Shown: positions 5,996 to 61,808 of the stretch, piece after piece
Numbering within the stretch: position 1 is the first letter of the stretch
How the letters are laid out: every line of letters begins with the position of its first letter
Assembly (NCBI GenBank): GCA_045535455.1
Contig: JAZSLQ010000253.1
Location: 906-64,905 of the forward strand
Length of the DNA stretch: 64,000 nt
Source: Kiritimatiellia bacterium
Lineage (GTDB): Bacteria > Verrucomicrobiota > Kiritimatiellia > RFP12 > UBA1067
Direction: 5' to 3'
Translations under genes and position numbers: made by a program
Notes under the pieces: model-generated
Told to the model about the DNA's origin: nothing
Database searches by the model: none
What the model saw: only the letters and a program-made list of their open reading frames with translations

Positions 5996-6066
5996 AGTTT
6001 AAAGTTTAAAGTTGAAAGTTGAAAGTTTGAAGAGCAAAGTTTAAAGCAGAAGTTGAAAGGGGAAAG
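5994..6066. repeat. Tandem heptamer array AAAGTTK (about 10 units, degenerating 3') filling the argJ/tolB-like intergenic region
   Basis: aaagttt aaagttt aaagttg aaagttg aaagtttg aagagc aaagttt aaagcag aagttg aaagggg aaagac, then ATG at 6069. Confidence 0.9.
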
Positions 6067-16006: not shown

Positions 16007-16108
16007 AAGATGGACCGGAGGCGCTCACGGAGGTGACGAAAATGGTTGCGGCAGACGATTATTCCTCGCCATCCTCGTCGGTAACTTCATGACATACATG
16101 CAAAGGAA

Positions 16109-26262: not shown

Positions 26263-26428
26263 ATATACCACTTAGTTAGCAAGTTCTTTCCTGCCAACAC
26301 CCCTGATTTTATGGGGTTTACTACACTTTTGCGCGCACGTGGAAAACGAAACGAGAGCGAAGATTTCGGCAAGATATGGGCAGTTTTAAATGTTTCTACT
26401 TGCCAGCGCCGCTAACTAAGTGGTATAT
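26263..26428. promoter_or_regulatory. Putative invertible promoter segment (inverton): 130 bp bounded by perfect 18-bp inverted repeats
   Basis: IR-L ATATACCACTTAGTTAGC at 26263-26280 and IR-R GCTAACTAAGTGGTATAT at 26411-26428 are exact reverse complements. The recombinase gene ends 43 bp upstream and the NusG-like gene starts 135 bp downstream. Confidence 0.6.
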
Positions 26429-28007: not shown

Positions 28008-28154
28008 AAAATGGAAAAGTGTTCCCTCTCGATTTGTGCAGATATGTGTGGATTTGTGGTTAAAAGTAAGTACAATCCAAGACCCTAAGTAACTCTAAAT
28101 CACCCTAACATCACTGTTTTGGATCGATTGATGAATGGTTAATCGAATTCGCGC

Positions 28155-29001: not shown

Positions 29002-30069
29002 ATGATAGAAGTATCTAGATTTGTAGCAACACTCAAGGAGTCGGGAGTTGATTTCTTCACCGGTGTGCCGGATTCGCTGCTGAAGAGTTTCTGCGCGTAT
29101 GTTACGGATAATTGCGGCGAGAACCACGTGATTGCCGCAAACGAGGGTGGGGCGGTTGGATTGGCCGCCGGGCATTACCTCGCAACAGGCAAACCTGCGC
29201 TCGTCTATATGCAGAACTCGGGACAGGGCAATGCGGTGAATCCGCTCTGCTCGCTCGCTGATCCGGATGTCTACTCCATTCCGATGGTGTTGTTGGTCGG
29301 ATGGCGCGGCGAGCCAGGCGTGAAGGACGAGCCGCAGCATGTCAAGCAGGGCAAGGTAACGGTTTCGCTCTTCGAGACGCTGGGCATTCCGACGGAGATT
29401 CTGCCTGACGATGAAATTGCCGCGCTTGAATTAACGAGGAAGATGGTTGAGAGGGCTAAGGCAGAATCCCGCCCTGTCGCGCTCATCGTCCGCAAGGGGC
29501 TCTTTGCAGAATACAAGCTCCAGAACAAGAAACCCGACATCTCGGCGCTTCCACGTGAGCAGGCGATTGAAGAGATATTAAAGTCGCTTCCTGAAGAAGC
29601 GGTTGTCGTTTCAACCACCGGCATGATCTCCCGCGAAGTCTACGAGACGCGCGAACGCCTCGGACAAGACCATTCGTGCGACTTCCTGACGGTTGGTTCG
29701 ATGGGCCACGCAATCATGATCGCGCTCGGAATCGCCAAGGCGCAGCCGAGCCGTCGAGTCTTATGTCTCGATGGTGACGGCGCAAGCATCATGCAAATGG
29801 GCAACATGGCAATTGCCGGACAGTCTGGCTGCGCGAACCTAACGCATATAGTCCTCAATAACGCGGCGCATGATTCCGTCGGCGGCCAGCCGACAGTTGG
29901 CGGATCAATCAATCTCTCAGAAATCGCGGCGTCATGTGGCTACAATCGCCCTGGGGCGCCAGTGTTCAAGGAAATCAAGGTCGCCAAAGGTGCCCGCAAG
30001 GATCTTGGCCGTCCGAAGGAGCCGCCGCAAGTCAATAAGAAGCTCTACATGGGAACGCTTTCGAAGTGA
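29002..30069 (+). CDS. aepY: Phosphonopyruvate decarboxylase (ThDP-dependent)
   Basis: 355 aa. N-terminus VDFFTGVPDSLLKSFCAYV and ThDP motif LDGDGASIMQMGNMA...IVLNNAAHDSVGGQ. Clustered with PEP mutase and AEP transaminase. Confidence 0.85.
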   Translation: MIEVSRFVATLKESGVDFFTGVPDSLLKSFCAYVTDNCGENHVIAANEGGAVGLAAGHYLATGKPALVYMQNSGQGNAVNPLCSLADPDVYSIPMVLLVGWRGEPGVKDEPQHVKQGKVTVSLFETLGIPTEILPDDEIAALELTRKMVERAKAESRPVALIVRKGLFAEYKLQNKKPDISALPREQAIEEILKSLPEEAVVVSTTGMISREVYETRERLGQDHSCDFLTVGSMGHAIMIALGIAKAQPSRRVLCLDGDGASIMQMGNMAIAGQSGCANLTHIVLNNAAHDSVGGQPTVGGSINLSEIAASCGYNRPGAPVFKEIKVAKGARKDLGRPKEPPQVNKKLYMGTLSK

Positions 30070-30770
30070 AAGAAATTGCGATATTGATGGCAGCAGGATT
30101 AGGAAGCCGCATGAGACCGCTAACTGACACAACGGCAAAGCCGCTCGTGGAAGTGAACGGCATCCCGCTGATTGAGACGGTTCTTGCGGCGCTGAAGAGA
30201 CGTGGGGTGGAAGAGATTTATATCGTTACCGGATATAAGGCGGAACAGTTCAAGTCACTAGCAGACAAGGATGGCGCGGTTCGCCTTATCCATAATTCAG
30301 AATATGCTACAAAGAACAATATTAATTCTATTGCCGTTGTTGCCGACAGGATGATGAATGCTGATTGTTTCATCTGCGAGGCTGATTTGTTTGTTGCCAA
30401 CGATGCGGTTCTTTGCCGTGACTTGTCGCGGTCTGGTTATTTCGGGAAGATGGTGAAGGGGCATTCCGACGATTGGGTGTTTGATACAGATTCAGCAGGC
30501 CGTGTAACGCGCGTCGGAAAAAATGGTGACGATTGCTTCAACATGGTTGGCGTCAGCTACTTCCAGGCAACGGATGCTGCGAAGATCGCGGTTGCCGTTC
30601 TAGAAGATGTCAAGAGGCCCGAGAATGCCCAGCTTTTCTGGGATGAAGTCGTTGATCGACTTGTGAAACAGAGGGAACTTGATTTAGTTGTTCACGAAGT
30701 CTCGACAGATGAGATTGTCGAATGTGACACTGTAGAAGATTTACAGATATTGGAGGCAAGGTTAAGATGA
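30066..30770 (+). CDS. LicC-like nucleotidyltransferase (candidate phosphonate cytidylyltransferase)
   Basis: 234 aa. NTP_transferase motif AILMAAGLGSRMRPLTDTTAKPLV. ATGA overlap with the upstream gene. Confidence 0.75.
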   Translation: MKEIAILMAAGLGSRMRPLTDTTAKPLVEVNGIPLIETVLAALKRRGVEEIYIVTGYKAEQFKSLADKDGAVRLIHNSEYATKNNINSIAVVADRMMNADCFICEADLFVANDAVLCRDLSRSGYFGKMVKGHSDDWVFDTDSAGRVTRVGKNGDDCFNMVGVSYFQATDAAKIAVAVLEDVKRPENAQLFWDEVVDRLVKQRELDLVVHEVSTDEIVECDTVEDLQILEARLR

Positions 30771-31888
30771 CGATAAAGAGAAACATTTTGCTTAACCCGG
30801 GCCCGGCGACAACGACAGATACAGTGAAGCTCGCCCAGGTTGTTCCCGATATTTGCCCACGCGAAAAGGACTTTGCCGGGTTGATGAAGGGCCTTCGCCG
30901 CGACCTTGTAAAAATTGTGCATGGCGATGACCGCTACACCAGCGTTCTCTTCTGTGGGTCTGGGACGCTAAACATGGACGTGTGCCTCAATTCCCTCCTC
31001 CCGTCAGGTAAGAAGATCCTTGTGGCAAACAACGGAGCCTATTCGTCTCGTGCCGTCGAGATATGCAAGGCATACGGGATGCCGCATATAAATTTATCGA
31101 TGCCGATTGAACAGCCGATTGATGCTGCGGCGGTAGAGAAGGCCCTTGTTGAGAATCCCGACGTTGCCGTTGTATATACGACGCACCATGAGACAGGTTC
31201 TGGCGTTCTCAATCCAATACGCGAAATTGGGGCGGCAGCGCATCGCCACGATTGCACATTTATTGTTGATACGACTTCTACCTATGCGATGCGCCCAATT
31301 AACATCATCGATGACAATGTCGACTTCTTGATGGCAAGCGCACAGAAGGGCTTGCAGTCCATGACAGGGCTGTCCTTCGTCGTTGGCCGCGAGGACAAAA
31401 TACGCGAATCGGCTGCATTCCCAAAGCGTTCATACTACTGTAACCTCTTTTTTCAGTATGACTATTTCGAGAAGACAGGTGAGATGCACTTCACGCCGCC
31501 GGTCCAGACGGTTTATGCTACGATCCAGGCGTTGAAAGAATATTTCGCAGAAGGGGAGGTCGCGAAGTGGGCACGCCACACTCGCGTGTTTGAGGCCATT
31601 CATAAAGGGCTTGAAGGCCTTGGCTTCCGAAATCTAATCAAACGCGAATATCAAAGCGGGCTTGTCGTGTCCGTCTGCTATCCCGACGATCCGAACTGGA
31701 ACTTCGAGAAGGTCCACGACTACTGCTACGAGAGGGGCTTCACGATCTATCCCGGCAAGGTCGGCTCCGCCAAGACGTTCCGCCTCTGTGCGCTGGGGCA
31801 GATCGACGAACAGGATATAACGGATTTCTTCAAGGTTTTCAAGACGGCTTTGGACGAATATGGAATCGAGGTCAGATACAATGGCTAA
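30767..31888 (+). CDS. phnW: 2-aminoethylphosphonate:pyruvate aminotransferase
   Basis: 373 aa. LLNPGPATTTDTVK N-terminus and the PLP lysine context SAQKGLQS, typical of PhnW/AepZ. Confidence 0.85.
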   Translation: MTIKRNILLNPGPATTTDTVKLAQVVPDICPREKDFAGLMKGLRRDLVKIVHGDDRYTSVLFCGSGTLNMDVCLNSLLPSGKKILVANNGAYSSRAVEICKAYGMPHINLSMPIEQPIDAAAVEKALVENPDVAVVYTTHHETGSGVLNPIREIGAAAHRHDCTFIVDTTSTYAMRPINIIDDNVDFLMASAQKGLQSMTGLSFVVGREDKIRESAAFPKRSYYCNLFFQYDYFEKTGEMHFTPPVQTVYATIQALKEYFAEGEVAKWARHTRVFEAIHKGLEGLGFRNLIKREYQSGLVVSVCYPDDPNWNFEKVHDYCYERGFTIYPGKVGSAKTFRLCALGQIDEQDITDFFKVFKTALDEYGIEVRYNG

Positions 31889-33185
31889 AAAGGTATATAC
31901 GTGTTTTTGCACGGCGGTGATTCACAAAGGGCACCGTAACATTATAAATGAGGCGCGGAAACTGGGTGAAGTGACAGTTGGCGTTCTCTCCGACGAGGCG
32001 ATGATCCGCTACAACCGCTTTCCGTCCTGTTCGCTGGAGGAACGGATTTCCGCCGCACGATCAATTGATGGCGTTGCCAATGTCGTTGTCCAGAAGGACA
32101 TGTTCTATGACGAGGTGATTGCGGAAGAGCGCCCCGACTACGTCATCCACGGCGACAACTGGTGCAGTCCGGAAGCACCCGAATACGCCATCCGTCAGAA
32201 TGTCGAGAAATGCCTTGCCGAATACGGCGGCAAGGTCGTCGATGTCCCCTATACGTTCGACCCAGAGATACAGAAGATAGACGAAATCGAACGCGAGCGT
32301 CTTGCAATGCCGGAGTTCCGCCGCAAGCGCCTGCGCCAGCTCATAAAGCTGTGTCCCATCGTCAAGACGATAGAGGCTCATTCGGGGCTAACGGGGCTTA
32401 TTGCTGAGAAGACGGTTGCCCGTCAGGAGGACGGACGCCTCGACCAGTTCGACGCGATGTGGGTCTCTTCGCTCTGCGATTCCACGGCGAAGGGCAAGCC
32501 GGACATCGAGCTTGTCGACATGTCGTCTCGGCTCCGTACCATTGATGATATCATGGAGGTTACGACAAAACCCATCATCCTTGACGGAGATACCGGTGGA
32601 TTGACTGAGCATTTCGTGTATAACGTCCGGACGCTCGAGCGCATTGGCGTTTCGGCCGTTATCATTGAAGACAAGTGCGGATTAAAGAAGAATTCGTTGT
32701 TTGGAACAGAGGTCAAGCAGACGCAGGATACGATAGAGAACTTCTGCGCGAAGATTGCCGCCGGAAAGGATGCGCTTCGCACGAAGGAATTCATGATCAT
32801 TGCACGTTGCGAGTCTCTGATTTTGGAGCAGGGGATGGACGATGCCTTGACGCGCTGCCACGCATACGTCAAGGCCGGTGCGGACGGCATCATGATCCAT
32901 TCGCGCAAGAAAGACCCTGCCGAGATACTGGAGTTTTGCGACAAGTTCCGTGCGGCCGATCCGACAACGCCAATCGTCGTCGTTCCGACTTCGTTCAACT
33001 CGGCTACGGAGAGCGAGCTTGCCGCGCACGGCGTCAACATCTGTATCTATGCGAACCATCTCACCCGCGCCGCATTCCCCGCTATGCAGTCAGTCGCGCA
33101 GGACTTGCTGAAATACCATCGGGCGCAGGAGGTCGATTCGCGGCTTATGCCTTTCAAGAAGATCATAACACTGATAGACGGTTGA
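31881..33185 (+). CDS. aepX: Cytidylyltransferase-like domain fused to phosphoenolpyruvate phosphomutase
   Basis: Start moved to MAKKVYTC (ATG 31881, 8-nt overlap). N-terminal HxGH-type motif VIHKGH. C-terminal PEP mutase signature IIEDKCGLKKNSL and FMIIARCES. Confidence 0.85.
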   Translation: MAKKVYTCFCTAVIHKGHRNIINEARKLGEVTVGVLSDEAMIRYNRFPSCSLEERISAARSIDGVANVVVQKDMFYDEVIAEERPDYVIHGDNWCSPEAPEYAIRQNVEKCLAEYGGKVVDVPYTFDPEIQKIDEIERERLAMPEFRRKRLRQLIKLCPIVKTIEAHSGLTGLIAEKTVARQEDGRLDQFDAMWVSSLCDSTAKGKPDIELVDMSSRLRTIDDIMEVTTKPIILDGDTGGLTEHFVYNVRTLERIGVSAVIIEDKCGLKKNSLFGTEVKQTQDTIENFCAKIAAGKDALRTKEFMIIARCESLILEQGMDDALTRCHAYVKAGADGIMIHSRKKDPAEILEFCDKFRAADPTTPIVVVPTSFNSATESELAAHGVNICIYANHLTRAAFPAMQSVAQDLLKYHRAQEVDSRLMPFKKIITLIDG

Positions 33186-33189
33186 ATCC

Positions 33190-35085
33190 ATGGAATATCT
33201 TGTAAAATTCTTCGCGTGGTTGATGGAATGGTGTCACTCGTGGTGCCCCAACTACTGGGCTGATATCGTCATCTTCACATTCCTTACCAAAGTTCTCCAA
33301 TTCCCGGTATCGCTTTGGTGCCAGGTGAATTCCCTCAAGATGGTTTCGCTCATGCCGGCGACGAACCGTATCAAGATGGAGCGTTACGGCGACAATGACG
33401 CAATTGGAGAAGAAACGGCGGCATTGTTTAAACGCGAGAAGTACCATCCGATGCTTTCACTTGTGCCGCTGGCGATTCAGATTGTCATTCTGATGGCATT
33501 CGTCAAGGTCATTTATGGAATTGGCGATAAGCTCACAATCCCAAACGCGGCGAAACCGCTTATCGCTTGTGTTCCGTGGACGGATGGTGGTCTTGCATGG
33601 TTCATGCCGCTTTTTGCAGGCGCGGCGGCGTGGCTCCTTGGCTATACACAGAATATTTTCAATCCGCTCCAACACGAGCAGACGCGGACGCAGCAGATCA
33701 TAACGAACGGTATCTCCATCTGCATCTCGCTCTTTCTCGGCTGTTTCGTCGCGGCTGGCGTCGGCCTCTATTGGGCGACAAGTAATTTGTTCTCCATCCT
33801 CGTGCAGCTCTGTGAGAACGTTGTCATTCCGCCAAAGAAACATGTGGACTATCATGCGCTTCGCCGCTCTCAGGCCGAGCTGAAGAAGTTTGAAGAGAGC
33901 ATCAAGAAGAAGGCAGTTGTGTCGCCAGAGGACCGGAAGCGAGAGAAGATGGACTACAAACGCTTTTTTCATGTTGCCAACAAGCACCTTGTATTCTATG
34001 CCGAGGGCGGTGGCTACTATAAATATTTTCAGAGTGTTGTGGAGTGGCTCCTTGCACATTCGAACGTGACGATCCATTATGTGACAAACGACCCGAAGGA
34101 TGGTGTCTTTGCGTTGGCTGAGAAGAATCCGCACATTCGTGCCTATTACATTGGACAGGTAAAGATTATTCCGCTCATGATGAAGATGGATGCTGACATG
34201 GTTGTGATGACGACGCCAGATTTGAACACATACCAATTGAAGCGTTCGTATGTGAAGAAAGATGTGGAATACGTGTATCTCGACCATGGTCCGACGAGTG
34301 TCCATATGTGCTATCGCAAGGGGGCGTTTGACCACTTTGACACCATTATGGCGAATGGCCCATTTCAGGTTGCCGAACATCGTGCGACCGAGAAACTTTA
34401 CGGATTGAAAGCGAAGAAGATGGTCGAATCGGGGTATCCGATTTTGGATCTTCTGCTGTCAGTGCCGGCCTCCAAGAGGACGGAATCTGGTAGTCGCCGC
34501 ATAATGATTGCGCCGTCCTATCAGGCTGACTGCATTCCGGACTCGTGCCTTGATGCACTCGTTGATACTATAACATCTGCGAATCTGGGTTGCACGGTCG
34601 TATTCCGTCCGCATCCGCAGTATGTCAGGCGCTTCCCAGCGAAGATGCAAGCCATTGTGGAACGTTACAAAGACCGCGCGGATGTCGTGTTGGAGGACGA
34701 CTTCTCGAAGCCCTCGACGATGGATCAATCGGACGTCCTTGTGACTGACTGGTCGGGAATTGCCTACGAATACGCTTTTAAAACGAAACGTCCGGTCGTA
34801 TTCATCAACACGCCGATGAAGGTCATAAATTCAGAATGGAAGAAGATTGGTCTTGAGCCGACGGATATTTCCTTCCGTGACGAGGTTGGAGTGTCTGTTC
34901 CGCTTGACGATATTCTGGCGGCGGGTCGTGCTGTCGCCGACATGTTGGCAGATCCCGGTAAGTTCGCCGAAAAGATTGAGTCGCTTCTGCAGACACAATT
35001 CTACAATCCGGGACATGCGGGAGAAGTTGTTGGAAAGTATATTCTTGAAACACTCATTAACAAGAAAAAAGGAATAATGAAATGA
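33190..35085 (+). CDS. YidC/Oxa1-like membrane domain fused to a TagF-type (CDP-glycerol glycerophosphotransferase family) domain
   Basis: 631 aa. N-terminal part has YidC-like motifs (IFTFLTKVLQFPVSL..., GVGLYWATSNLFSILVQ). C-terminal part has the TagB/F-like motif SDVLVTDWSGIAYEYAFKTKRPVVF. Confidence 0.65.
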   Translation: MEYLVKFFAWLMEWCHSWCPNYWADIVIFTFLTKVLQFPVSLWCQVNSLKMVSLMPATNRIKMERYGDNDAIGEETAALFKREKYHPMLSLVPLAIQIVILMAFVKVIYGIGDKLTIPNAAKPLIACVPWTDGGLAWFMPLFAGAAAWLLGYTQNIFNPLQHEQTRTQQIITNGISICISLFLGCFVAAGVGLYWATSNLFSILVQLCENVVIPPKKHVDYHALRRSQAELKKFEESIKKKAVVSPEDRKREKMDYKRFFHVANKHLVFYAEGGGYYKYFQSVVEWLLAHSNVTIHYVTNDPKDGVFALAEKNPHIRAYYIGQVKIIPLMMKMDADMVVMTTPDLNTYQLKRSYVKKDVEYVYLDHGPTSVHMCYRKGAFDHFDTIMANGPFQVAEHRATEKLYGLKAKKMVESGYPILDLLLSVPASKRTESGSRRIMIAPSYQADCIPDSCLDALVDTITSANLGCTVVFRPHPQYVRRFPAKMQAIVERYKDRADVVLEDDFSKPSTMDQSDVLVTDWSGIAYEYAFKTKRPVVFINTPMKVINSEWKKIGLEPTDISFRDEVGVSVPLDDILAAGRAVADMLADPGKFAEKIESLLQTQFYNPGHAGEVVGKYILETLINKKKGIMK

Positions 35086-42588: not shown

Positions 42589-43716
42589 ATGAAAAAAAAG
42601 ATTGCAGTGATTTTTGGTACACGTCCAGAAGCAATTAAGCTTTGCCCGGTTGTGTTGGCATTAAAGGCCGCCCCGACCTTTGATTGCAAGGTCTGCGTGA
42701 CAGGCCAGCATCGGGAGATGCTGCAGCAAGTACTGGATGTTTTTGGAGTCGCGCCAGATAAGGATTTGGCGCTAATGCGCCCAAATCAGACGCTCGGAGG
42801 ATTGACGAGCCGCGCAATTGCCGCGATAGATGAGTATCTTGCCGAAGAGAAGCCGGACATCGTGATGGTGCAGGGAGATACAACGACTGTCCTTGCCGGT
42901 GCGTTGGCGGCGTTCTATCACCACGTTCCCGTTGCGCATGTCGAAGCAGGACTTCGCACTTGGAATATGGAAAGCCCATGGCCGGAGGAGGCAAACCGCG
43001 TGCTGACGACACGCCTGGCCAAATGGCACTTCTGCCCTACGGAAAACAACAAGGCGAATTTGCTGAAAGAGGGTGTGCCCGAGAAAGATATTTATGTGAC
43101 GGGCAACACGGTAATAGACGCACTTTTGATGGCGAAAGAGAAAGTGAATGTTACCCCGCCTGCAATTGGTGACTTGCCAAATGACTTGATGGCATCTGGC
43201 GAGCGCATGGTGCTTGTCACTGGTCATAGACGCGAGAACTTTGGCGAGGGGTTCGAGAACATCTGCACGGCAATCAGGAATCTTGCCGAACGGTTCCCTG
43301 AGACACACTTTGTCTATCCAGTTCACCTTAACCCGAATGTGCGTGAACCAGTTGAACGTATCCTTGGTGCGTGTCGCGGCAAAAATGTCCATCTGATCGC
43401 TCCGCAAAGTTATCTTCCATTTGTTGCGTTGATGAATAGATCCTATCTTATTCTTACCGATTCGGGTGGAGTTCAGGAAGAAGCCCCCTCCCTTGGCAAA
43501 CCGGTGCTTGTTATGCGTGACACGACAGAGCGACCGGAAGCAGTGACGGCAGGAACCGTAAAGATAATTGGAACCATGCGGGAGACAATTGAGAAAGAGA
43601 CTGCAAAGTTGCTTGGTAATGTGAAGGAATACAAAAAAATGGCTGCTGCTGTCAATCCCTATGGTGACGGTCGTGCGGTCGGCTGTATAGTTCGGACTCT
43701 GGAGGCGACACGATGA
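42589..43716 (+). CDS. wecB: UDP-N-acetylglucosamine 2-epimerase (non-hydrolysing)
   Basis: 375 aa. FGTRPEAIKLCPV, VAHVEAGLRTWN, TDSGGVQEEAPSLGKPVLVMRDTTERPE. Confidence 0.92.
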   Translation: MKKKIAVIFGTRPEAIKLCPVVLALKAAPTFDCKVCVTGQHREMLQQVLDVFGVAPDKDLALMRPNQTLGGLTSRAIAAIDEYLAEEKPDIVMVQGDTTTVLAGALAAFYHHVPVAHVEAGLRTWNMESPWPEEANRVLTTRLAKWHFCPTENNKANLLKEGVPEKDIYVTGNTVIDALLMAKEKVNVTPPAIGDLPNDLMASGERMVLVTGHRRENFGEGFENICTAIRNLAERFPETHFVYPVHLNPNVREPVERILGACRGKNVHLIAPQSYLPFVALMNRSYLILTDSGGVQEEAPSLGKPVLVMRDTTERPEAVTAGTVKIIGTMRETIEKETAKLLGNVKEYKKMAAAVNPYGDGRAVGCIVRTLEATR

Positions 43717-53987: not shown

Positions 53988-56204
53988 ATGAAACAGATAT
54001 TGCAATCATTCAAGACAGGTGAAATGTGGCTCGCTGAAGTGCCGGCGCCGCTTTGCAAGGGCAAAGGGGCGGTGGTGCAGACAGCCGCAAGCTTCGTGAG
54101 CGCGGGGACGGAGCGTATGCTCGCCGAGTTCGCCAAGAAGGGACTCGTCGGCAAGGCGCTGCAAATGCCAGACCAAGTGAAAAAGGTCATCCGCAAGATG
54201 AAGACGGAGGGCGTCTTCGCCACTCTTGAGAAAGTGCAGGCGAAACTCGATCAGCCGATTCCGCTTGGCTACTCATCGGCGGGTGTTGTCGTTGAGGCGG
54301 GACGAGATTCGGGCTTCAATGTTTGCGACCGTGTTGCCTGTGGTGGCGCGGGATTCGCAAATCACGCGGAGTTCAACTATGTGCCGCGCAACTTGATGGT
54401 TAAGATTCCGGATGGCGTGAGCTTCGAGGACGCGAGCTGCGCGACGGTCGGATCGATCGCGCTGCAGGGCGTTAGGCAGTGCGAGGTGAATCTCGGAGAG
54501 ACGGTCGCGGTGATCGGACTGGGGCTTATGGGCATTCTTGCCGTCCAGATGCTGAAGGCGAGCGGATGTCGAGTAATCGGGTTCGATCCGAATTCAGGGC
54601 GTTGCAAGCTCGCGGAGGAGATGGGCTGCGATAGGGCGGTCAGCGACAATTTTGCCGCGGAGTGTATGGCGTTCTCGGGTGGCTTCGGCGTCGATGCGGT
54701 GCTTATTACTGCGGCGACGCATTCTGACGAGCCGGTGACAGTCGCGGCGGAGATCAGCCGCAAGAAGGGCAAGGTCGTTGCGACGGGGCTTGTGGGGATG
54801 AATTTGCCTCGCGACCAATACTACAAGAAAGAAGTTGATTTCCGGCTTAGCTGCTCCTACGGCCCTGGACGCTATGACCCTGTGTATGAGGAGCAGGGTA
54901 TTGATTATCCGTTTGGCTATGTTCGTTGGACGGAGCAGCGAAACATGGCGGCATTTTTGCAGCTTGTCGCGGAAGGGAAGGTTACACCGTCGAAGCTTGT
55001 GACGCATAGATTCAAGTTTGATGACGCGCTTGATGCCTACCAGGTGCTGCTGGGAATCAAGAAGGAGCCGTATCTTGGTATCGTCTTGGAGTATGGAGAT
55101 GTTTTAACGCAGAGGCGCGAAGGCGCAGAGGACGCAGAGATTTGCAGGAGGGTAGATTTTGGTCGCCCCTCTGCACTAAAAACAGAAAATGTAGGCGTGT
55201 CGTTTATAGGGTGCGGGAATTTTGCGAAGGCGGTGCTGCTTCCGACGCTAAAGAAAACGAAGGGAGTAGCCTTCCGCGGCGTTTCCACCGCGACAGGAAT
55301 GAGCGCCACAGACACCGCAAAGAAGTACGGCTTTGCATTCGCCGCAACGGATCAGGCCGAGGTGCTGAAGGATGCGGAAACGAACCTCGTTATGGTGACA
55401 ACACGCCATGATATGCATGCCACACAGATCAAGGCGGCGCTTGATGCCGGGAAGTACGTATTCTCCGAAAAGCCACTTTGTATCAATGAGGAACAGTTAG
55501 AGAAACTTTTAGCCACAAAGGACACAGAGATCACAAAAGAGTCCTCTGCAACTCTGCGACTCTGCGACTCTGCGTTAAAAAATCGCGTTATGATCGGCTT
55601 CAATCGCCGCTTCTCGCCTCATGCCAAGTTGCTGAAGGAGTATTTCTCGAAGCGGACGCTGCCGCTTGTGATGCACTATCGCGTCAACGCGGGGTCGATT
55701 CCGAAGGACATCTGGCTTCAGGACCCGGAAGTTGGCGGCGGACGTATGGTTGGCGAAGGATGTCACTTCATTGACTTCATGAGCTATGTCTGCGGTGCGC
55801 CGGTTGAGAAGGTTCAGGCGATGTGCATCAAGACGGCAAATGGGGCCGAGACGCCGGAGGACTCGATTAGCGTCAATCTCCAGTTTGCGGACGGCAGCGT
55901 GGGAACGCTTGAGTATGTCGCTCTCGGCGACACGACGCTGCCGAAGGAGTTCTGCGAAATACACGGCGAGGGCTCGACGGCGACGATGGACAACTTCTGC
56001 AAGACCGTCTGCTCCGGCAAGCTTGGAAAGCGCAAGCTGAAAGGCAAGCAGCAGAAGGGGTTCAGGGAGGAGTTGGAGGCGACGATTGAGGCGGTGAAGA
56101 ATGGGAAAGCGATGCCGATTCCGTTTGACCAGATTCTCAATGTCACGAAAACAACTTTTGCTGTACTCAAGGCCGTCAAGTCTGGGCAGAGCGAAGAAGT
56201 CTAA
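53988..56204 (+). CDS. Bi-domain oxidoreductase: MDR/alcohol-dehydrogenase-like N-domain + Gfo/Idh/MocA C-domain
   Basis: 738 aa. The N-terminal half has an MDR pattern (GYSSAGVV..., VAVIGLGLMGILAVQ). The C-terminal half has VSFIGCGNFA Rossmann and GFNRRF motifs. Carries two heptad-array repeats in linker regions. Confidence 0.8.
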   Translation: MKQILQSFKTGEMWLAEVPAPLCKGKGAVVQTAASFVSAGTERMLAEFAKKGLVGKALQMPDQVKKVIRKMKTEGVFATLEKVQAKLDQPIPLGYSSAGVVVEAGRDSGFNVCDRVACGGAGFANHAEFNYVPRNLMVKIPDGVSFEDASCATVGSIALQGVRQCEVNLGETVAVIGLGLMGILAVQMLKASGCRVIGFDPNSGRCKLAEEMGCDRAVSDNFAAECMAFSGGFGVDAVLITAATHSDEPVTVAAEISRKKGKVVATGLVGMNLPRDQYYKKEVDFRLSCSYGPGRYDPVYEEQGIDYPFGYVRWTEQRNMAAFLQLVAEGKVTPSKLVTHRFKFDDALDAYQVLLGIKKEPYLGIVLEYGDVLTQRREGAEDAEICRRVDFGRPSALKTENVGVSFIGCGNFAKAVLLPTLKKTKGVAFRGVSTATGMSATDTAKKYGFAFAATDQAEVLKDAETNLVMVTTRHDMHATQIKAALDAGKYVFSEKPLCINEEQLEKLLATKDTEITKESSATLRLCDSALKNRVMIGFNRRFSPHAKLLKEYFSKRTLPLVMHYRVNAGSIPKDIWLQDPEVGGGRMVGEGCHFIDFMSYVCGAPVEKVQAMCIKTANGAETPEDSISVNLQFADGSVGTLEYVALGDTTLPKEFCEIHGEGSTATMDNFCKTVCSGKLGKRKLKGKQQKGFREELEATIEAVKNGKAMPIPFDQILNVTKTTFAVLKAVKSGQSEEV
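55104..55148 (+). repeat. Heptad-array repeat, type A (CGCAGAG orientation)
   Basis: TTAACGCAGAGgcgcgaagGCGCAGAGgaCGCAGAGatttgcagg, translated in frame as LTQRREGAEDAEICR. Confidence 0.85.
55543..55578 (-). repeat. Heptad-array repeat, type A (CTCTGCG orientation), convergent partner of 55104-55148
   Basis: cctctgcaaCTCTGCGaCTCTGCGaCTCTGCGTTAA, translated as SSATLRLCDSALK. Its reverse complement shares TTAACGCAGAG plus further heptads with 55104-55148. Confidence 0.85.
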
Positions 56205-57688
56205 TGGCGATCGGTAGATTAGTTAGAACGTTGCAATATCTGAAGCTCCGTCAGATCTGGTATCAGGTTTGGCGTAGGATTCAGAAGGGGCTTGAAGCAC
56301 ATCCGAAGTGTGGAGGCGAAGAGCTGCCGGAGTTTACATTTCTCAATCTGACGGCGAAGCCGAAGGGATGGAATGACGAGTCACTGGATATGCTGTGGAG
56401 GTATAACCTGCATTACTTCGATTGGGTTTTAACGCAGAGGCGCAGAGACGCGGAGTACGCAGAGAATCTACTGGAGAGGTGGATAAAAGATAATCCTAAA
56501 GGTTGCGTCCCTGGTTGGGATCCATACCCCACGAGCCTTCGTATTGTCAATTGGGTTAAATATCTACAAACCCGCTCTGCGCACTCAGCGTCTCTGCGCC
56601 TCTGCGTTGAAAACTCCTTGCGCGCTCAGCTCGATTACCTCGCTAAGCACATAGAATGGCACATCCTTGCGAATCACCTCCTCGCCAACCTCAAGGCACT
56701 TGTAATCGGGAACAGGTTTCTTGGACGTGATTGTGATAAATGGATGCGGCTCTACGAGAAACAGATTGGTGAGCAGGTGTTGCCAGATGGTGGACACTAC
56801 GAGCGTAGCGTCATGTACCATGCAATCATCCTGGAGGATGTGTTGGATGTAATCAAGTTCTGCGGCGAAGATGCCGCTTGGCTAAGGCCGGTTGCGGCGA
56901 AGATGCTGCGCTATCTAGTCAACATGACCGGTCCGGACGGAAAGATTGCCATGTTCAACGATGCTGCCGATGCTATTGCCAAGCCTACAGATTGGATTGT
57001 CAGTTACGCAAATAAACTTGGCTTTGAAGCACCGATTGCAGAGCCGTTTGTCGATTTTCCTGATACGGGCTACACGCGAATGACTGTGGGAGATTTCGTT
57101 TTATTTGTAGATACTGCTCCGATAGGTCCCGACTACCAGCCGGGGCATGCGCATGCCGATACGCTCACCTACGAGTTGTATTACAAGGGGCGGAAGGTTG
57201 TGACAGATTCCGGTACTAGCGAATATCGCGGCAAAAGACGTGCATTCGAACGTTCGACCGCCGCCCACAATGTCGTGGAGGTCGGCGGACGCAATTCAAG
57301 CGAGGTTTGGAGTTCGCACCGTGTCGGGGCGAGAGCGAGAATTGTGAAGCGCGGGGTCGAACAGGGACGAATTTTCGCCGCGCACGATGGATACGGGTTT
57401 GAGGTCGGAAGGGAATGGCGACTCACGAATGAAGGACTTTCTGTAACGGAGCGGGTAAAGAGCTCGGGCAATTGTGTCACGAGGGTCCACATGAGTTTAG
57501 CCGCAAAGGACGCAAAGTTAGCAAAGGAAGAAATTTGTTTTGAGACTACTGGGATTAATGTCAAAGGGCTTGTTGATTTTAAAGAGTATGAATATGCTGT
57601 TGAGTTTGGCAAGTCGGAAAAAGGTGTGTGTATGTCTAGTGCTTTCAATGGAGGAGAGTTCTCGTATTCAATAATCCCTACGGTTTAG
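56204..57688 (+). CDS. Heparinase II/III-like family protein (polysaccharide-locus type)
   Basis: 494 aa. LWRYNLHYFDW, GWDPYPTSLRIVNWVKY and WHILANHLLANLKAL match my recollection of this family. TAATG overlap with the upstream gene. Confidence 0.75.
   Translation: MAIGRLVRTLQYLKLRQIWYQVWRRIQKGLEAHPKCGGEELPEFTFLNLTAKPKGWNDESLDMLWRYNLHYFDWVLTQRRRDAEYAENLLERWIKDNPKGCVPGWDPYPTSLRIVNWVKYLQTRSAHSASLRLCVENSLRAQLDYLAKHIEWHILANHLLANLKALVIGNRFLGRDCDKWMRLYEKQIGEQVLPDGGHYERSVMYHAIILEDVLDVIKFCGEDAAWLRPVAAKMLRYLVNMTGPDGKIAMFNDAADAIAKPTDWIVSYANKLGFEAPIAEPFVDFPDTGYTRMTVGDFVLFVDTAPIGPDYQPGHAHADTLTYELYYKGRKVVTDSGTSEYRGKRRAFERSTAAHNVVEVGGRNSSEVWSSHRVGARARIVKRGVEQGRIFAAHDGYGFEVGREWRLTNEGLSVTERVKSSGNCVTRVHMSLAAKDAKLAKEEICFETTGINVKGLVDFKEYEYAVEFGKSEKGVCMSSAFNGGEFSYSIIPTV
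56429..56464 (+). repeat. Heptad-array repeat, type A (CGCAGAG orientation), left arm of a 36-bp inverted repeat
   Basis: TTAACGCAGAGGCGCAGAGACGCGGAGTACGCAGAG, translated as LTQRRRDAEYAE. Confidence 0.9.
56575..56610 (-). repeat. Heptad-array repeat, type A, right arm (33/36 reverse-complement match to 56429-56464)
   Basis: CTCTGCGCACTCAGCGTCTCTGCGCCTCTGCGTTGA. Its reverse complement TCAACGCAGAGGCGCAGAGACGCTGAGTGCGCAGAG differs from the left arm at 3 positions. Translated as SAHSASLRLCVE. Confidence 0.9.
57500..57527 (+). repeat. Heptad-array repeat, type B (CGCAAAG orientation)
   Basis: GCCGCAAAGgaCGCAAAGttaGCAAAGG in the 3' part of the heparinase-like gene (LAAKDAKLAKE). Confidence 0.8.
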
Positions 57689-57725: not shown

Positions 57726-57752
57726 CTTTGCGACCTTTGCGTTCTTTACGGC
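57726..57752 (-). repeat. Heptad-array repeat, type B (CTTTGCG orientation) in the 5' UTR of the GT4 gene
   Basis: CTTTGCGACCTTTGCGTTCTTTACGGC. Its reverse complement GCCGTAAAGAACGCAAAGGTCGCAAAG matches 58981-59007 at 25/27 positions. Confidence 0.9.
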
Positions 57753-57765
57753 TAAAACCAAAACA

Positions 57766-59016
57766 ATGAAAATCCTATTTTTTTCTCATTACTATACTCC
57801 TGAGGGCAATGCCCCGGCAACGCGAGTGAGCGCATTGTGTGAGCGCTGGGTAAAGGCCGGGCACGATGTCACGGTCGTGACATGTCCGCCGAATGTTCCG
57901 AATGGAATCGTCTATGACGGCTACGCCAACAGGCGTACTAGCGAAGTCATCAACGGCGTCAAGGTCGAGCGCGTGAAGCTCTACATCGCCGCCAACAAGG
58001 GTGCGGTCAAGCGCATGTTCAACTTCGTCAGCTACTTTCTGAAGGCGCTCTTAGCAGCGTTGCGGTTGCCGAAGCCGGATGTCGTCGTTGCGACGAGTCC
58101 GCAGATATTCTGTGGCTATGCTGGAGTATGGTACAAGCGATTGAGGCATGTACCGTTGGTGATTGAGATACGTGATATCTGGCCTGAGTCGATGGGCGCG
58201 GTTGGCGCGAACATCCCGAAGATCGCCTACTGGAATCTCGAGCGAATAGAGAAGGCGATGTACAAGAAATGCGACCGGCTCGTTACGCTTGGACAAGGAT
58301 ACTATGACCGCCTTGCCGAAAAGGGTGTGCCGAAGGAGAAGATGTCCATTGTCATGAACGGCACCGACCTCGCGGTATATTCGCCGCGAGAGAAGAATGC
58401 AGAGCTGCTGAAGAAGTTTGGCCTAGAGGATAAGTTTGTTGTGAGCTACATCGGGACTGTTGGCATGGCCTGCGGACTGGAGGTTGTATTGGATGCGGCG
58501 GAAATTATTAGCCGCAAAGATCGCAAAGAGGTAGTGTTTGTGGTTGTGGGAGACGGTGCACACAGGGAGCGATTGGAGTCGGAGGCGAAAAAGCGTGGAC
58601 TGGCAAATGTAGTATTCACGGGACGACAGCCGAAAAGTTCGATGCCGGATTGGGTGAGTTCGAGCGATGCAAGCCTCGTTCATTTGAAGAAGACCGAGCT
58701 GTTTACGACGGTGATGCCGAGCAAGATATTCGAATCAGCAGGGTGCAAGCGACCGATCATAATGGGCGTGGACGGTTTTGCGAAGAAGCTTGTGATGGAT
58801 GCGAATGCTGGACTCGACATGACACCCGAAAACGCCGATTCGCTTGTTGAGTGCGTTGAGAAGTTGGTCGGAGACCCTGAGCTTTGTAAGCAGCTGGGTG
58901 AAAACGCCTACAACAACATCGCCAAAGTCCATAACCGCGACAAGCAGGCAGAAGATTATCTGAAGACTCTTGAGATGTTAGCCGCAGAGAACGCAAAGGT
59001 CGCAAAGCCTTTGTGA
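57766..59016 (+). CDS. Glycosyltransferase family 4 (WbuB-like)
   Basis: Start moved to MKILFFSHYYTPEGNAPATRV (ATG 57766), the typical WbuB-type N-terminus. C-terminal GT-B motif region. Confidence 0.85.
   Translation: MKILFFSHYYTPEGNAPATRVSALCERWVKAGHDVTVVTCPPNVPNGIVYDGYANRRTSEVINGVKVERVKLYIAANKGAVKRMFNFVSYFLKALLAALRLPKPDVVVATSPQIFCGYAGVWYKRLRHVPLVIEIRDIWPESMGAVGANIPKIAYWNLERIEKAMYKKCDRLVTLGQGYYDRLAEKGVPKEKMSIVMNGTDLAVYSPREKNAELLKKFGLEDKFVVSYIGTVGMACGLEVVLDAAEIISRKDRKEVVFVVVGDGAHRERLESEAKKRGLANVVFTGRQPKSSMPDWVSSSDASLVHLKKTELFTTVMPSKIFESAGCKRPIIMGVDGFAKKLVMDANAGLDMTPENADSLVECVEKLVGDPELCKQLGENAYNNIAKVHNRDKQAEDYLKTLEMLAAENAKVAKPL
58511..58530 (+). repeat. Heptad-array repeat, type B (short copy) inside the GT4 gene
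   Basis: GCCGCAAAGatCGCAAAGAG, translated as SRKDRKE. Confidence 0.55.
58981..59007 (+). repeat. Heptad-array repeat, type B, at the 3' end of the GT4 gene
   Basis: GCCGCAGAGAACGCAAAGGTCGCAAAG, translated as AAENAKVAK. Inverted partner of 57726-57752 and of 59022-59035. Confidence 0.9.
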
Positions 59017-59048: not shown

Positions 59049-60203
59049 ATGAAAATAGTATCAGTAGTAGGGGCGCGGCCGAACTTCATGAAGGTTGCGC
59101 CGTTCTGTCGTGCGCTTAAGGCATATCCTGACGTAAAGCACGTACTGGTCCATACGGGGCAGCACTATGACGTCAGGATGAGCGAGCAGTTCTTCAAGGA
59201 GCTGGACATCCCCAATCCCGACATCAATCTCGAGATTGGTTCTGGGTCTCATGCCGAGCAGGTCGGGCGCACGATGATTGCGTTCGAGAAGGTGCTACGC
59301 GAGGGGAAGCCCGATTGGGTTGTGGTGCTGGGCGATGTCAATGCGACGTGCGCGTGTTCCATTACGGCGAAGAAGGAGCATATCAAATGTGCTCATATTG
59401 AGGCGGGTTTGCGAAGCCGCGACATGGACATGCCTGAGGAGATAAATCGACTCGTGACAGACCGACTCAGCGACCTTCTGTTGACGCCCGATCGGCTGAG
59501 CAATGCAAATCTCAAGGCAGAGGGTGTGCCAGATGAGAAGGTCAAGTTTGTCGGCAACATCATGATCGACACTCTTGAACGCGAGCGTGAGAAGGCGGCG
59601 GCGCTTGATCTGTCCAAGATTGTAGCAGACAATCTTATAGATGAATATCCAACCTCCGCCTCTCTGCGCCTCTGCGCCTCTGCGTTAAAAGATAGAAAAT
59701 ATGTTGCAATGACGATGCATCGTCCGAGCAATGTGGATCAACGCGAGACACTGGAGCCGGCAATGAGGTTCTTTCTCGACGAGATTACGAAGGAATATCC
59801 GATTGTCTGGGCGATACACCCGCGCGCGCAGAAGATGCTGAAGGAGTTTGGGCTCTGGGACGAGGTTGTGGCTAATGAGAATATGATCCTTGTCAAGCCG
59901 CTTGGCTATCATGCGATGCTGCGGCTCAACATGGGTGCGCGGCTCTTCATGACCGACTCCGGTGGCCTTCAGGAGGAATGTTGCGTACTTGGGACGCCAT
60001 GTCTCACGATGCGGTGGAACACCGAGCGTCCGATCACGCTGATGGAAAATGGCGGCGCATCCATCCTCGTCGGCAATGCGGTCGGGAAGATGCGCGATGC
60101 CTATCGGTCGCAGATTGATGCGCCACGTCATGCGATGCGCCCCGAACTTTGGGACGGACATACGGCGGAAAGAATCGCGGAATGCATTGTAAAAGGAATG
60201 TAA
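59049..60203 (+). CDS. UDP-N-acetylglucosamine 2-epimerase (non-hydrolysing), second paralog
   Basis: Start moved to MKIVSVVGARPNFMKVAP (ATG 59049). CAHIEAGLRSRD and TDSGGLQEECCVLGTPCLTMRWNTERP. Carries a type A repeat in the interdomain linker. Confidence 0.88.
   Translation: MKIVSVVGARPNFMKVAPFCRALKAYPDVKHVLVHTGQHYDVRMSEQFFKELDIPNPDINLEIGSGSHAEQVGRTMIAFEKVLREGKPDWVVVLGDVNATCACSITAKKEHIKCAHIEAGLRSRDMDMPEEINRLVTDRLSDLLLTPDRLSNANLKAEGVPDEKVKFVGNIMIDTLEREREKAAALDLSKIVADNLIDEYPTSASLRLCASALKDRKYVAMTMHRPSNVDQRETLEPAMRFFLDEITKEYPIVWAIHPRAQKMLKEFGLWDEVVANENMILVKPLGYHAMLRLNMGARLFMTDSGGLQEECCVLGTPCLTMRWNTERPITLMENGGASILVGNAVGKMRDAYRSQIDAPRHAMRPELWDGHTAERIAECIVKGM
59653..59688 (-). repeat. Heptad-array repeat, type A (CTCTGCG orientation), solo copy
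   Basis: cctccgcCTCTCTGCGcCTCTGCGcCTCTGCGTTAA, translated as TSASLRLCASALK. I saw no convergent partner within the gene. Confidence 0.85.
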
Positions 60204-60974: not shown

Positions 60975-61808
60975 ATGTACTATCTCAACAAGATAATCGG
61001 TTTTCTTGTAAGTCCAATTGGGGGTGCGATTGCAGGAGGCATTGCCGCGGTTGTCTGTGCGCGGCTGGGGCGTAAGCGTCTCGCCAAATGGCTCGGTGGG
61101 CTTACGGTCGCATGGTTGTGGCTCTGGATGACGCCGATCATGACATGGGTTGTCGGCGTGCCGCTTGAGCGCGAATTTCTTGTCGACGGAAGGGTGCCGG
61201 CGGTTGAGACATTTTCGGAGACTGACGCTATCGTGCTTCTTGGCGGAAGCATGGGAGTCGAGACGAATCTAAGCCAGTATGCCGAGATGTGGACAAGCGC
61301 GGATCGTGTATGGCAGGCGGCGCGGCTCTACAAGGCAGGGAAGTCGAGTAAGATTATCGCGACTGGAGACTATGCGAAGGATACGACGCTGCCGCTGCTG
61401 AAGGAGTTTGGAGTGGGGGAAGAGACGGTGTCGTTTCTCGATGCGAGGACTACGGAGGAAGAGGCGAAGGGGATTAGGGAATTATTTAGCCGTGTAGAAC
61501 ATGTAGATCGTGTAGATGGGGGGATTGGCAGCCGCAAAGAACGCAAAGATGATAGTCGTGTAGAAGGGGGAGAGGTGAAGGTATTTTTGGTGACGAGTGC
61601 GTGGCACATGAAGCGAGCGAGGTTGATGTTCAATAAGTATGCGCCAGAGATTGAGGTTGTCTGTGCGCCAGCGGACTTCGAGAATACTTTTATGGCATGT
61701 CAGACGCCTTTCTTTAAGGTTGTCCTACCTGACTCAACAATATTTTACTTGAACTCCGTTGCTTTTCACGAGTGGGTAGGTATTGTTGGGTATTCGATTT
61801 TCAGATAA
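60975..61808 (+). CDS. DUF218 (YdcF/ElyC-like) protein with an in-frame repeat insertion
   Basis: 277 aa with N-terminal TM helices and the DUF218 motif FLVTSAWHMKRA. A 9-bp-periodic repeat block sits just upstream of this motif. Confidence 0.75.
   Translation: MYYLNKIIGFLVSPIGGAIAGGIAAVVCARLGRKRLAKWLGGLTVAWLWLWMTPIMTWVVGVPLEREFLVDGRVPAVETFSETDAIVLLGGSMGVETNLSQYAEMWTSADRVWQAARLYKAGKSSKIIATGDYAKDTTLPLLKEFGVGEETVSFLDARTTEEEAKGIRELFSRVEHVDRVDGGIGSRKERKDDSRVEGGEVKVFLVTSAWHMKRARLMFNKYAPEIEVVCAPADFENTFMACQTPFFKVVLPDSTIFYLNSVAFHEWVGIVGYSIFR
61488..61575 (+). repeat. Composite 9-bp-periodic repeat block (CGTGTAGA units plus a type B CGCAAAG array) inside the DUF218 gene
   Basis: CGTGTAGAaCATGTAGAtCGTGTAGAtgg (61491-61519), GCCGCAAAGAACGCAAAG (61531-61548), CGTGTAGAagg (61557-61567). 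Translated as SRVEHVDRVDGGIGSRKERKDDSRVEGG. Confidence 0.8.

Follow-up and report, generated by a model that had tools for sequence, protein, structure and literature searches.

An inverted repeat within a heparinase-like gene of a Kiritimatiellia polysaccharide cluster is probably made of two copies of a dispersed octamer-array element

The closest description of the element dealt with here is found in the genome paper of Geobacter metallireducens (Aklujkar et al. 2009, PMC2700814), in which 7-9-mers repeated three to five times in tandem form sites that are 'mostly found in pairs' and lie on opposite strands at variable distance. A four-heptamer family was noted 'within genes ... as well as between genes', and the sites were read as species-specific, and as regulator or IHF/HU sites, a function not tested by those authors (PMC2700814). 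As outlined in PMC3337134 and PMC3116915, the replicating unit of REPINs (repetitive extragenic palindromic, REP, doublets forming hairpins) is considered to be an inverted doublet around a spacer, which folds into a long hairpin, and singlets are its remnants; REPIN populations have been described, in the summaries available, as lineage-bound and vertically inherited. Perfect inverted repeats of up to 284 bp with both arms translated are on record, at least in outline, from the mitochondrial coding sequences of Nematomorpha (PMC6649704). [quoted passage not shown] RPEs are 100-150-bp palindromes known from one genus only. In this work we analysed a 64,000-nt stretch of the genome of a Kiritimatiellia bacterium (contig JAZSLQ010000253.1; hereafter the window), in which a gene for a heparinase II/III-like protein contains a long inverted repeat. 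We present evidence that the two arms are probably oppositely oriented copies of a dispersed octamer-array element that occupy tolerant loops of the protein, and not a gene-specific switch.

The first-pass annotation of the window had reported in this gene a 36-bp inverted repeat (33 of 36 positions matching) with both arms translated in frame around a conserved motif. A repeat search of the window recovered the structure and added two bases per side: arm 1 and arm 2 have 38 nt each, are 92% complementary and are separated by a gap of 110 nt. Both arms are indeed read in frame within the open reading frame (ORF), as the peptides VLTQRRRDAEYAE and SAHSASLRLCVE, and the spacer encodes the block GWDPYPTSLRIVNW, in which residues W105, Y108, S111, R113, N116 and W117 are invariant in 75 aligned homologs. 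That the repeat exceeds chance was also borne out. With 30-nt arms, at most 3 mismatches and a spacing of up to 500 nt, inverted repeats were absent from each of 20 first-order shuffles of the window, against two clusters in the real sequence. Such a calculation treats the arms as two independent sequences, which they are not: both belong to a repeat family represented five times in the window; the AACGCAGAGNCGCAGAG motif is matched there 11 times, against 0.8 expected.

We define the element (type A) as an A/T-rich head ending in AAC followed by three to four tandem GCAGAGRC units, with the family consensus WWTTHAAC-(GCAGAGRC)3-4. Both arms have this structure and align from the head with the three other type-A copies of the window. 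When oriented, all five (starting at 55101+, 55543-, 56427+, 56575- and 59654-) read (G)TTTTAAC followed by three or four GCAGAGNC units. Arrays with other heads and units accompany them: TTTAGCC-(GCAAAGNNC)n at 57495, 57726 (-), 58505, 58977 and 59009 (-), TTTTAGC-(CACAAAGNN)n at 55507, and TTTAGCC-(GTGTAGAAC)n at 61484. Altogether, the stretch from 55.1 to 61.6 kb contains about 14 copies, all unit types included, distributed over at least five adjacent genes and their spacers (Table 1), in an order that begins + - + - + - + -, and the remaining 57 kb of the window have matches at chance level only. Outside 55-62 kb, only a partial array of the CACAAATC type at 28020-28130 could plausibly belong to the superfamily; it has a GGTTAAAAG head, lies on the reverse strand and adjoins a ACCCTAAATC 10-mer repeat.

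Table 1. Repeat copies and host gene in the 55.1-61.6 kb region (window coordinates).
Feature	Position	Strand	Sequence and remarks
Type-A copy, ADH-GFO inter-domain linker of ORF 53988-56204	55101-55140	+	encodes VLTQRREGAEDAE
Decayed one-unit type-A remnant	55166-55183	-	CCTCTGCACTAAAA; far side of the ancestral RRVDF linker peptide
Type-D copy, abuts next element	55507-55541	+	TTTTAGC CACAAAGGA CACAGAGAT CACAAAAG
Type-A copy, linker of GFO N and C domains	55543-55584	-	encodes SSATLRLCDSALKN
Host gene, heparinase II/III-like (alginate-lyase superfamily), polysaccharide cluster	56204-57688	+	494 aa; Pfam Hepar_II_III_N and Hepar_II_III_C
Arm 1, type-A element	56427-56464	+	TTTTAAC head, GCAGAGGC GCAGAGAC GCGGAGTAC GCAGAG; encodes VLTQRRRDAEYAE, residues 75-87
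Spacer, 110 nt	56465-56574	+	ancestral host coding sequence (NLLERWIKDNPKGCVPGWDPYPTSLRIVNWVKYLQT); invariant family residues
Arm 2, type-A element	56575-56612	-	reverse complement TTTCAAC GCAGAGGC GCAGAGAC GCTGAGTGC GCAGAG; encodes SAHSASLRLCVE, residues 125-137
Type-B copy, near 3' end of heparinase-like ORF	57495-57530	+	GTTTAGC CGCAAAGGA CGCAAAGTT AGCAAAG; encodes SLAAKDAKLAKEE; pLDDT dip, residues 431-450
Type-B copy, spacer directly 5' of glycosyltransferase (GT4) start codon (57766)	57726-57758	-	
Two-unit type-B copy within GT4 gene	58505-58528	+	IISRKDRKE; at this site, three units in L129 and other unit types in other lineages
Type B(+)/B(-) heads-out hairpin, near-zero loop	58977-59041		GT4 stop codon and spacer ahead of epimerase start
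Type-A copy, UDP-GlcNAc 2-epimerase	59654-59691	-	encodes TSASLRLCASALK; variable segment between two Rossmann domains
Three forward copies, insertion in DUF218 protein ORF 60975-61808	61484-61573	+	type C CGTGTAGAA, type B, type C/I

The genic copies occupy variable loops or inter-domain linkers. For the heparinase-like protein, the earlier proposal that the arms lie in variable regions around a conserved block was confirmed by homolog alignment: at both arm sites, homologs have quite different low-complexity peptides or none (e.g. CLAAKNAEDAK, GLFNAEAQRRRE, SSHKDHKEHKEH, and in one case an insert of 40 residues, PQIGTNRHKSEDGVCE...). Comparison at the DNA level revealed these peptides to be other members of the repeat superfamily. 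Among the homologous loci (L numbers), L122 has three type-A copies in tandem at site 1, L123 a complete hairpin module, in frame, at sites 1 and 2, and L131, L134 and L135 have CGTGTAG-type copies at both sites; in L128 a CGCAAAG-type copy at site 1 is combined with a decayed type-A(-) copy at site 2. In homologs without repeats the two sites are 60-93 nt long, and in the window 90 and 105 nt; the arms thus take the place of some of the loop sequence.

Predicted structure points to the same sites. The AlphaFold (AF2) model of the heparinase-like protein is confident (predicted local distance difference test, pLDDT, 89; predicted template modelling score, pTM, 0.91), and its weakest 10-residue blocks are 71-80 (arm 1, the lowest, pLDDT 67), 121-130 (arm 2) and 431-450 (the type-B copy); a further dip, at residues 311-320, has no repeat beneath it. 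In the ADH/GFO fusion the copies fall between Pfam domains, and in the epimerase the copy falls where the best solved relative, 4NEQ, shows gaps. The cluster has two UDP-GlcNAc 2-epimerase paralogs (42589-43716 and 59049-60203), of which only the second carries a copy. As read from its sequence, the octamer unit is free of stop codons in all six frames. The copies thus reside in frame at structurally tolerant sites, with the ORF undisrupted, in the manner of RPEs.

The similarity of the arms lies in the DNA. The first-pass annotation had held that protein-level constraint does not explain them, and two observations bear this out. In the ortholog of locus L003 (70% nucleotide identity), the DNA of arm 1 recurs, but +1 and -1 indels move it into another frame, so that the peptide is FNAEAQRRRE where the window has LTQRRRDAEYAE. 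Arm 2 of the window is 97% identical to that of L003, with 92% identity at third codon positions, and 92% identical to that of L122, with 77% at third positions; third positions of the surrounding gene are 44-59% identical. Concerted evolution of partner arms found no support: identity is 0.66 between partners and 0.67 between non-partners (p = 0.16).

The family is widely distributed: dispersed copies recur within this genome as well as in others. A genome scan with AACGCAGAGNCGCAGAGNCGC, one genome per species, gave at least 118 loci in many phyla, isolates included. Among the matches listed are Acidobacteriota, Planctomycetota, Verrucomicrobiota, Kiritimatiellia, Victivallales, Chloroflexota, Gemmatimonadota, Myxococcota, Desulfuromonadales, Cyanobacteria, Chlamydiales, Alpha- and Gammaproteobacteria and one Firmicute metagenome-assembled genome, together with the isolates Chitinilyticum litopenaei DSM 21440 and Thiohalobacter thiocyanaticus Hrh1; among these matches the octamer is nearly identical from Acidobacteriota to Gammaproteobacteria. 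Viral contigs contained 17 stretches with the motif, against 1 for a composition-matched control, and it occurs without annotation in the finished plasmid sequences of Ca. Thiodictyon syntrophicum and Nostoc sp. HK-01. On the former (pTs485; L220), a heads-in perfect palindrome of CGCAGAG arrays lies 5' of an unannotated cation-antiporter-like ORF, and nearby there is an inverted pair of another tandem unit, (CGTTGT)n ... (ACAACG)n (regions 3960-4030 and 5050-5170); inverted pairs of short tandem arrays may perhaps be a general architecture with many unit types. The L003 contig has more than 50 arrays in 15 kb, in both coding sequences and spacers. Three called genes of this contig (2469-2822, 5544-5732 and 9720-9968; 62-117 aa, no Pfam match) lie wholly on repeat-module arrays and are probably spurious ORFs arising from stop-free units.

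The head and unit statistics of 140 independent copies match the window arms. The bases 5' of AAC, which were not selected for, are T in 62-65% of cases at positions -2 and -3 (background 20%), the arrays mostly have three to four units, and the spacer base is A or G. Among the matches listed, adjacent type-A arrays no more than 400 nt apart are heads-out (+-) in 73 cases, -+ in 11, ++ in 20 and -- in 32, and the heads-out loops have 4-195 nt in all but two cases. An inverted partner lies within 300 nt of 44% of the type-A arrays and a direct partner of 15%, and other short arrays have no inverted-partner bias. Inverted doublets are thus over-represented, as among REPs and REPINs. In L003, from a close relative, a module of 217 nt is present in three copies (94% and 78% identity) and consists of a type-A arm, a structured interior of 113 nt and an inverted arm; it is predicted to fold as one long hairpin (z = -8.8). 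Because full modules, short hairpins and solo arms all occur in the family, the pattern is the one described for REPINs and REP singlets. The elements are under-represented in long ORFs, since 46% of them, as against 88% of random positions, lie in ORFs of at least 200 codons. Pairs deep within long ORFs were considered as a general trait and dropped, since most 'in-ORF' pairs lie at the ends of stop-to-stop ORFs, i.e. at gene boundaries. The depletion, together with the position of pairs at ORF ends in other phyla, indicates that deep genic residence is mainly a feature of the window's own lineage.

Two sites of the cluster document turnover. At one site of the GT4 gene, the CGCAAAG unit is present twice in the window and three times in L129; GTGTAG/GTGGAG units occupy the site in L137 and L135, type A is found twice in L003 together with an inverted copy, and L126 and L134 lack an array. 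Arrays of all types begin at the identical nucleotide. The GT genes of L003 and L002 contain complete in-frame hairpin modules. RRVDF, the ancestral peptide of the ADH/GFO linker, is already found in L124 and L138, which are free of repeats. In the window and L003 it lies between A+/A- arms, in L001 and L134 between copies of a type-G unit (AGGATTGAC) in +/- orientation, and in L128 and L131 between mixed types. Seen together, the two sites thus reveal that tolerant positions were filled independently and that heads-out pairs of one type surround host sequence in excess.

We place the octamer-array family among short dispersed hairpin-forming repeats, though it coincides with none of those described. 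The paired Geobacter sites also consist of three to five tandem units on opposite strands at variable spacing, and one of their units, TCTCCGTS[Y], reads on the opposite strand as a near-variant of ours; cross-phylum spread, in-frame coding analysis and a T-rich AAC head are not reported there (PMC2700814). REPs and REPINs, as far as they are characterised in the accounts cited above, share with the family the short (~25-40 nt) dispersed repeats, the excess of heads-out doublets and the solo arms alongside; octamer-array arms differ in their variable spacing (4-195 nt), their frequency in coding sequence and their occurrence across phyla. The arms are direct tandem octamers with a TTTTAAC head, with neither the internal palindrome nor the GTAG head of REPs, and the interior of the arm pair, unlike that of a MITE, is ancestral host coding sequence. 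In-frame residence is shared with RPEs, and the relatives L123, L003 and L002 carry whole in-frame hairpin modules. In the window, however, the pair is not one inserted palindrome, because the arms lie in two separate loops and the spacer is ancestral host sequence. The Nematomorpha palindromes, in what is summarised of them, likewise form a long inverted repeat within a protein-coding gene with both arms translated, but they are mitochondrial and lineage-specific and do not belong to a dispersed octamer-array family.

The heads-out pairs resemble the R''/R' boxes of integron attC sites as imperfect inverted repeats of ~60-260 nt with a ...YYYAAC 5' end, a GTTRRR... 3' end and a variable centre; they differ in being tandem octamers inside conserved genes, not at cassette ends. 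The integron reading, raised by the AAC...GTT heads, was rejected: there are no cassettes and no integrase, and the window recombinase scores 33 bits against the 265-bit TIGR02249 cut-off.

Taken together, we propose, with a probability of about 0.78, that the arms are two oppositely oriented copies of a dispersed octamer-array element in tolerant loops, and not a gene-specific switch. This reading rests on the observed membership of the arms in the family, their in-frame residence in variable loops, the wide distribution and heads-out bias of the family, the separability of the arms and the lack of inverted alleles (see below). In its behaviour the family is like a non-autonomous hairpin-forming repeat of the REPIN/MITE kind: its typical state is a heads-out inverted pair, either as a short hairpin or as a module of ~170-220 nt, and solo arms, changes in unit number by slippage and turnover of unit type are common in it. 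We infer that it spread by copying of hairpin modules and decay to solo arms, and that homologous recombination shuffled the haplotypes. In the Kiritimatiellae polysaccharide cluster, copies would have become fixed only where the protein tolerates them, in loops at the surface and in linkers between domains. Within the heparinase-like gene, a first copy lies in the loop before the conserved GWDPYP helix-hairpin and an inverted one in the loop after it; jointly they form an inverted repeat of 38 bp on either side of 110 nt of coding sequence that is essential. If so, the inverted repeat needs no special function; it would be a by-product of a repeat colonising two tolerant loops, and the stem in the mRNA would be tolerated rather than a selected device.

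Several observations weigh against this proposal. The identity of arm 2 at third positions (0.92 and 0.77, against 0.44-0.59) is not what a passive fossil would show, and requires gene conversion from other copies, recent transfer or selection. The same-type heads-out pairs around RRVDF exceed what independent solo insertions easily give, and a lineage-bound selfish element does not explain the near-identity of the octamer across phyla. Window copies are confined to 6.5 kb, so the genome of the window may have no active family. No transposase or REP-associated tyrosine transposase (RAYT) was identified, and no Y1 transposase was found among the window ORFs scanned; no genome-wide search for RAYTs was made, the sequences considered being the 64-kb window and loci of 8 kb. 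No target-site duplication could be defined either, and mobility is therefore deduced from distribution only. Three further candidates were rejected: the pair 3.3 kb apart in L025, checked for a transposase between its members, encloses ordinary biosynthetic genes only; the copies with 70-bp periodicity in L072 have identical 'spacers' and are a plain tandem repeat, not CRISPR-like; and telomerase-like or two-ended insertion models for arms bracketing host DNA predict a duplication of the spacer, which is not seen.

An alternative that we consider unlikely is that the elements form an actively maintained cross-phylum system, whose arms are written or refreshed by conserved machinery and are not passive junk. 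The conservation of arm 2, the same-type pairs around RRVDF and the near-identity of the octamer across phyla fit active maintenance better than simple decay. Such machinery could be RAYT-like, another nuclease or polymerase, or templated repair, and could write heads-out pairs sometimes around pre-existing host segments of up to ~200 nt. Arms would then be kept near a universal consensus even in genes, and would form conditional long-range RNA or DNA hairpins that punctuate operons or permit rare recoding inversions.

It has also been suggested that the repeat acts as double-stranded RNA. As a selected mRNA structure, the 36-bp stem would loop out the 110-nt block and serve as an RNase III site or a translation brake that tunes the operon. 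A very stable stem is indeed predicted: the fold of 56415-56625 has -99.2 kcal/mol against -61.5 for shuffles (z -8.35), so that the arms can pair wherever the mRNA is free of ribosomes. Duplexes longer than 20 bp are typical substrates of RNase III. A heads-out pair places a purine-rich arm 5' of a pyrimidine-rich arm in any transcript, the heads-out bias (73 against 11 among the matches listed) could reflect selection at the RNA level, and the sole arm difference between the window and L001/L002 (CGC to CGT) retains a G-U pair. The arms are, however, not co-maintained, as follows from two sets of alleles (P numbers): in P0245 arm 2 is intact but site 1 is occupied by a type-B copy, and P0253-P0255 have an uncompensated L-to-Q change in arm 2. 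More generally, an intact arm 2 coexists with type A, an A-variant, B or D at site 1, and arm 2 is decayed in other lineages (ASQRLSIE). Of the three mismatches between the arms, G.A and A.C break pairs and the third is a U-G wobble. No Rfam family was found for the region or for 15 hairpin loci, the only match in the window being a sub-threshold chance one (19.7 against 72 bits). The stem is thus predicted to form, but its selection as an RNA device appears doubtful, and we assign it a low probability.

An intragenic inverton, in which recombination between the arms flips the 110-nt block and recodes the enzyme to an off state, is very improbable. Its outline is attractive: as in known invertons, inverted arms enclose a segment of 100-200 bp within a polysaccharide locus, a class of surface locus that is often phase-variable; arms of 38 nt with 92% identity suffice for homologous or site-specific inversion; and a tyrosine recombinase is encoded within the window. 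It had been argued that inversion would truncate the protein, 110 not being a multiple of 3. This is wrong, because inversion leaves the length unchanged and the inverted allele is open through all 494 codons, so that it would encode a full-length protein without the GWDPYP motif, recoded rather than truncated. The inverted orientation would give the junction CGCAGAG|CGGGTTTGTAGATATT and a partner junction. All 15 distinct allele-group sequences, from independent NCBI, ENA and Logan assemblies, are in the forward orientation, as are five loci, L001-L003 and L122 among them, a sample in which low-frequency inversion could still have gone unseen. A search with the inverted-allele peptide gave no candidates, and also missed P0001-P0003, which share the flanks. 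Haplotype P0245 lacks arm 1 and keeps arm 2, and the same arms, which come from a dispersed family, are elsewhere solo, in spacers and in many phyla, where inversion is meaningless. The recombinase is not adjacent but 30 kb off, with an inverted repeat of its own. Its gene (24952-26220; Pfam Phage_integrase, 5e-24), the only recombinase gene in the window, is followed directly 3' by a perfect 18-bp inverted repeat (ATATACCACTTAGTTAGC, 26263-26280/26411-26428, gap of 130 nt) unrelated to the octamer arms. Located at the head of the 29-64 kb polysaccharide cluster, this second repeat (26263-26428) is a candidate for a recombinase-linked invertible promoter.

We give as little credence to the proposal that the dispersed arms are a recombination anchor, i.e. 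portable homology that favours the exchange of cassettes within the polysaccharide locus. Mosaicism is marked in this gene, since the tract over both arms is 97-100% identical to L001/L002 and the rest 70-85%, and there are chimeric alleles (P0038, P0244 and P0245). However, the breakpoints of the mosaic are at ~56330-56390 and ~56750, 40-140 nt outside the arms, that of P0245 is inside the conserved block, and such mosaics are explained by ordinary homologous recombination in conserved coding sequence.

Finally, a sequencing or assembly artefact, which low-complexity tandem units could in principle induce, can be set aside, given identical arms at identical codons in independent assemblies from three sources and an ORF intact throughout, and so can convergence on the peptides, since third-position identity and the frame shift in L003 place the conservation in the DNA.

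What makes the family worth reporting is that a single unit of 8 nt, preceded by a defined head, is shared by phyla that are very far apart; finished records do not annotate it, and Rfam has no entry for it. In the literature searched, a single genome paper of 2009 gives the Geobacter analogue, in passing; a full-text search with the raw motif strings returned no paper, and a search of the repeat literature on the Planctomycetes-Verrucomicrobia-Chlamydiae (PVC) group returned nothing relevant. The family is thus poorly described, with three features of note: the near-identity of the octamer across phyla, the heads-out pairing, which at times encloses host sequence, and a conservation of the arms above the synonymous rate. 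The repeats are common enough in coding sequence to cause much of the length variation between orthologs; they yield spurious 'hypothetical proteins', low-complexity inserts and long intragenic RNA duplexes, confound alignment and structure prediction in loops, and may seed recombination or assembly errors. If the conservation of the arms does reflect an active process, it would amount to a new biology of genome maintenance or mobile elements shared across bacteria.

The origin of the repeat-bearing region can be viewed against the composition of the window. The G+C content is uneven, with 0.61-0.64 at 1-12 kb, 0.42-0.50 at 34-52 kb and 0.50-0.56 at 54-62 kb. All repeat copies fall in the 0.50-0.56 block, the one shared and mosaic with L001-L003, a pattern consistent with import of a repeat-bearing sub-cluster from a repeat-rich lineage. 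GatA of the window is 85-88% identical to proteins named Kiritimatiellae. The allele P0242, of the P0002 cluster (MBO6306779.1, 'alginate lyase family protein [Paludibacteraceae bacterium]'), is a copy of the heparinase-like protein with at least 90% identity and has both arms; because the housekeeping GatA of the window is Kiritimatiellae-like, either the contig of P0242 is mis-binned or the cluster has recently been transferred between phyla.

Some other features of the window were recorded. A tandem array of the heptamer TAAAGTT (5993-6046; 7.7 copies, Tandem Repeats Finder score 66) lies just 5' of an ORF with PD40 repeats (6069) and is unrelated to the octamer family. A low-G+C segment (13691-18649) contains two large ORFs, of 771 and 846 aa, for which neither Pfam nor NCBIfam gives a match. 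The polysaccharide cluster also contains phosphonate-type biosynthesis genes (29002-35085): a phosphoenolpyruvate mutase fused to a cytidylyltransferase-like domain (31860-33185), an aminotransferase, a YidC-like/glycerophosphotransferase fusion (33190-35085), and thiamine diphosphate-dependent decarboxylase-like genes at 29002 and 37984. Their presence in the cluster suggests a phosphonate-decorated surface glycan.

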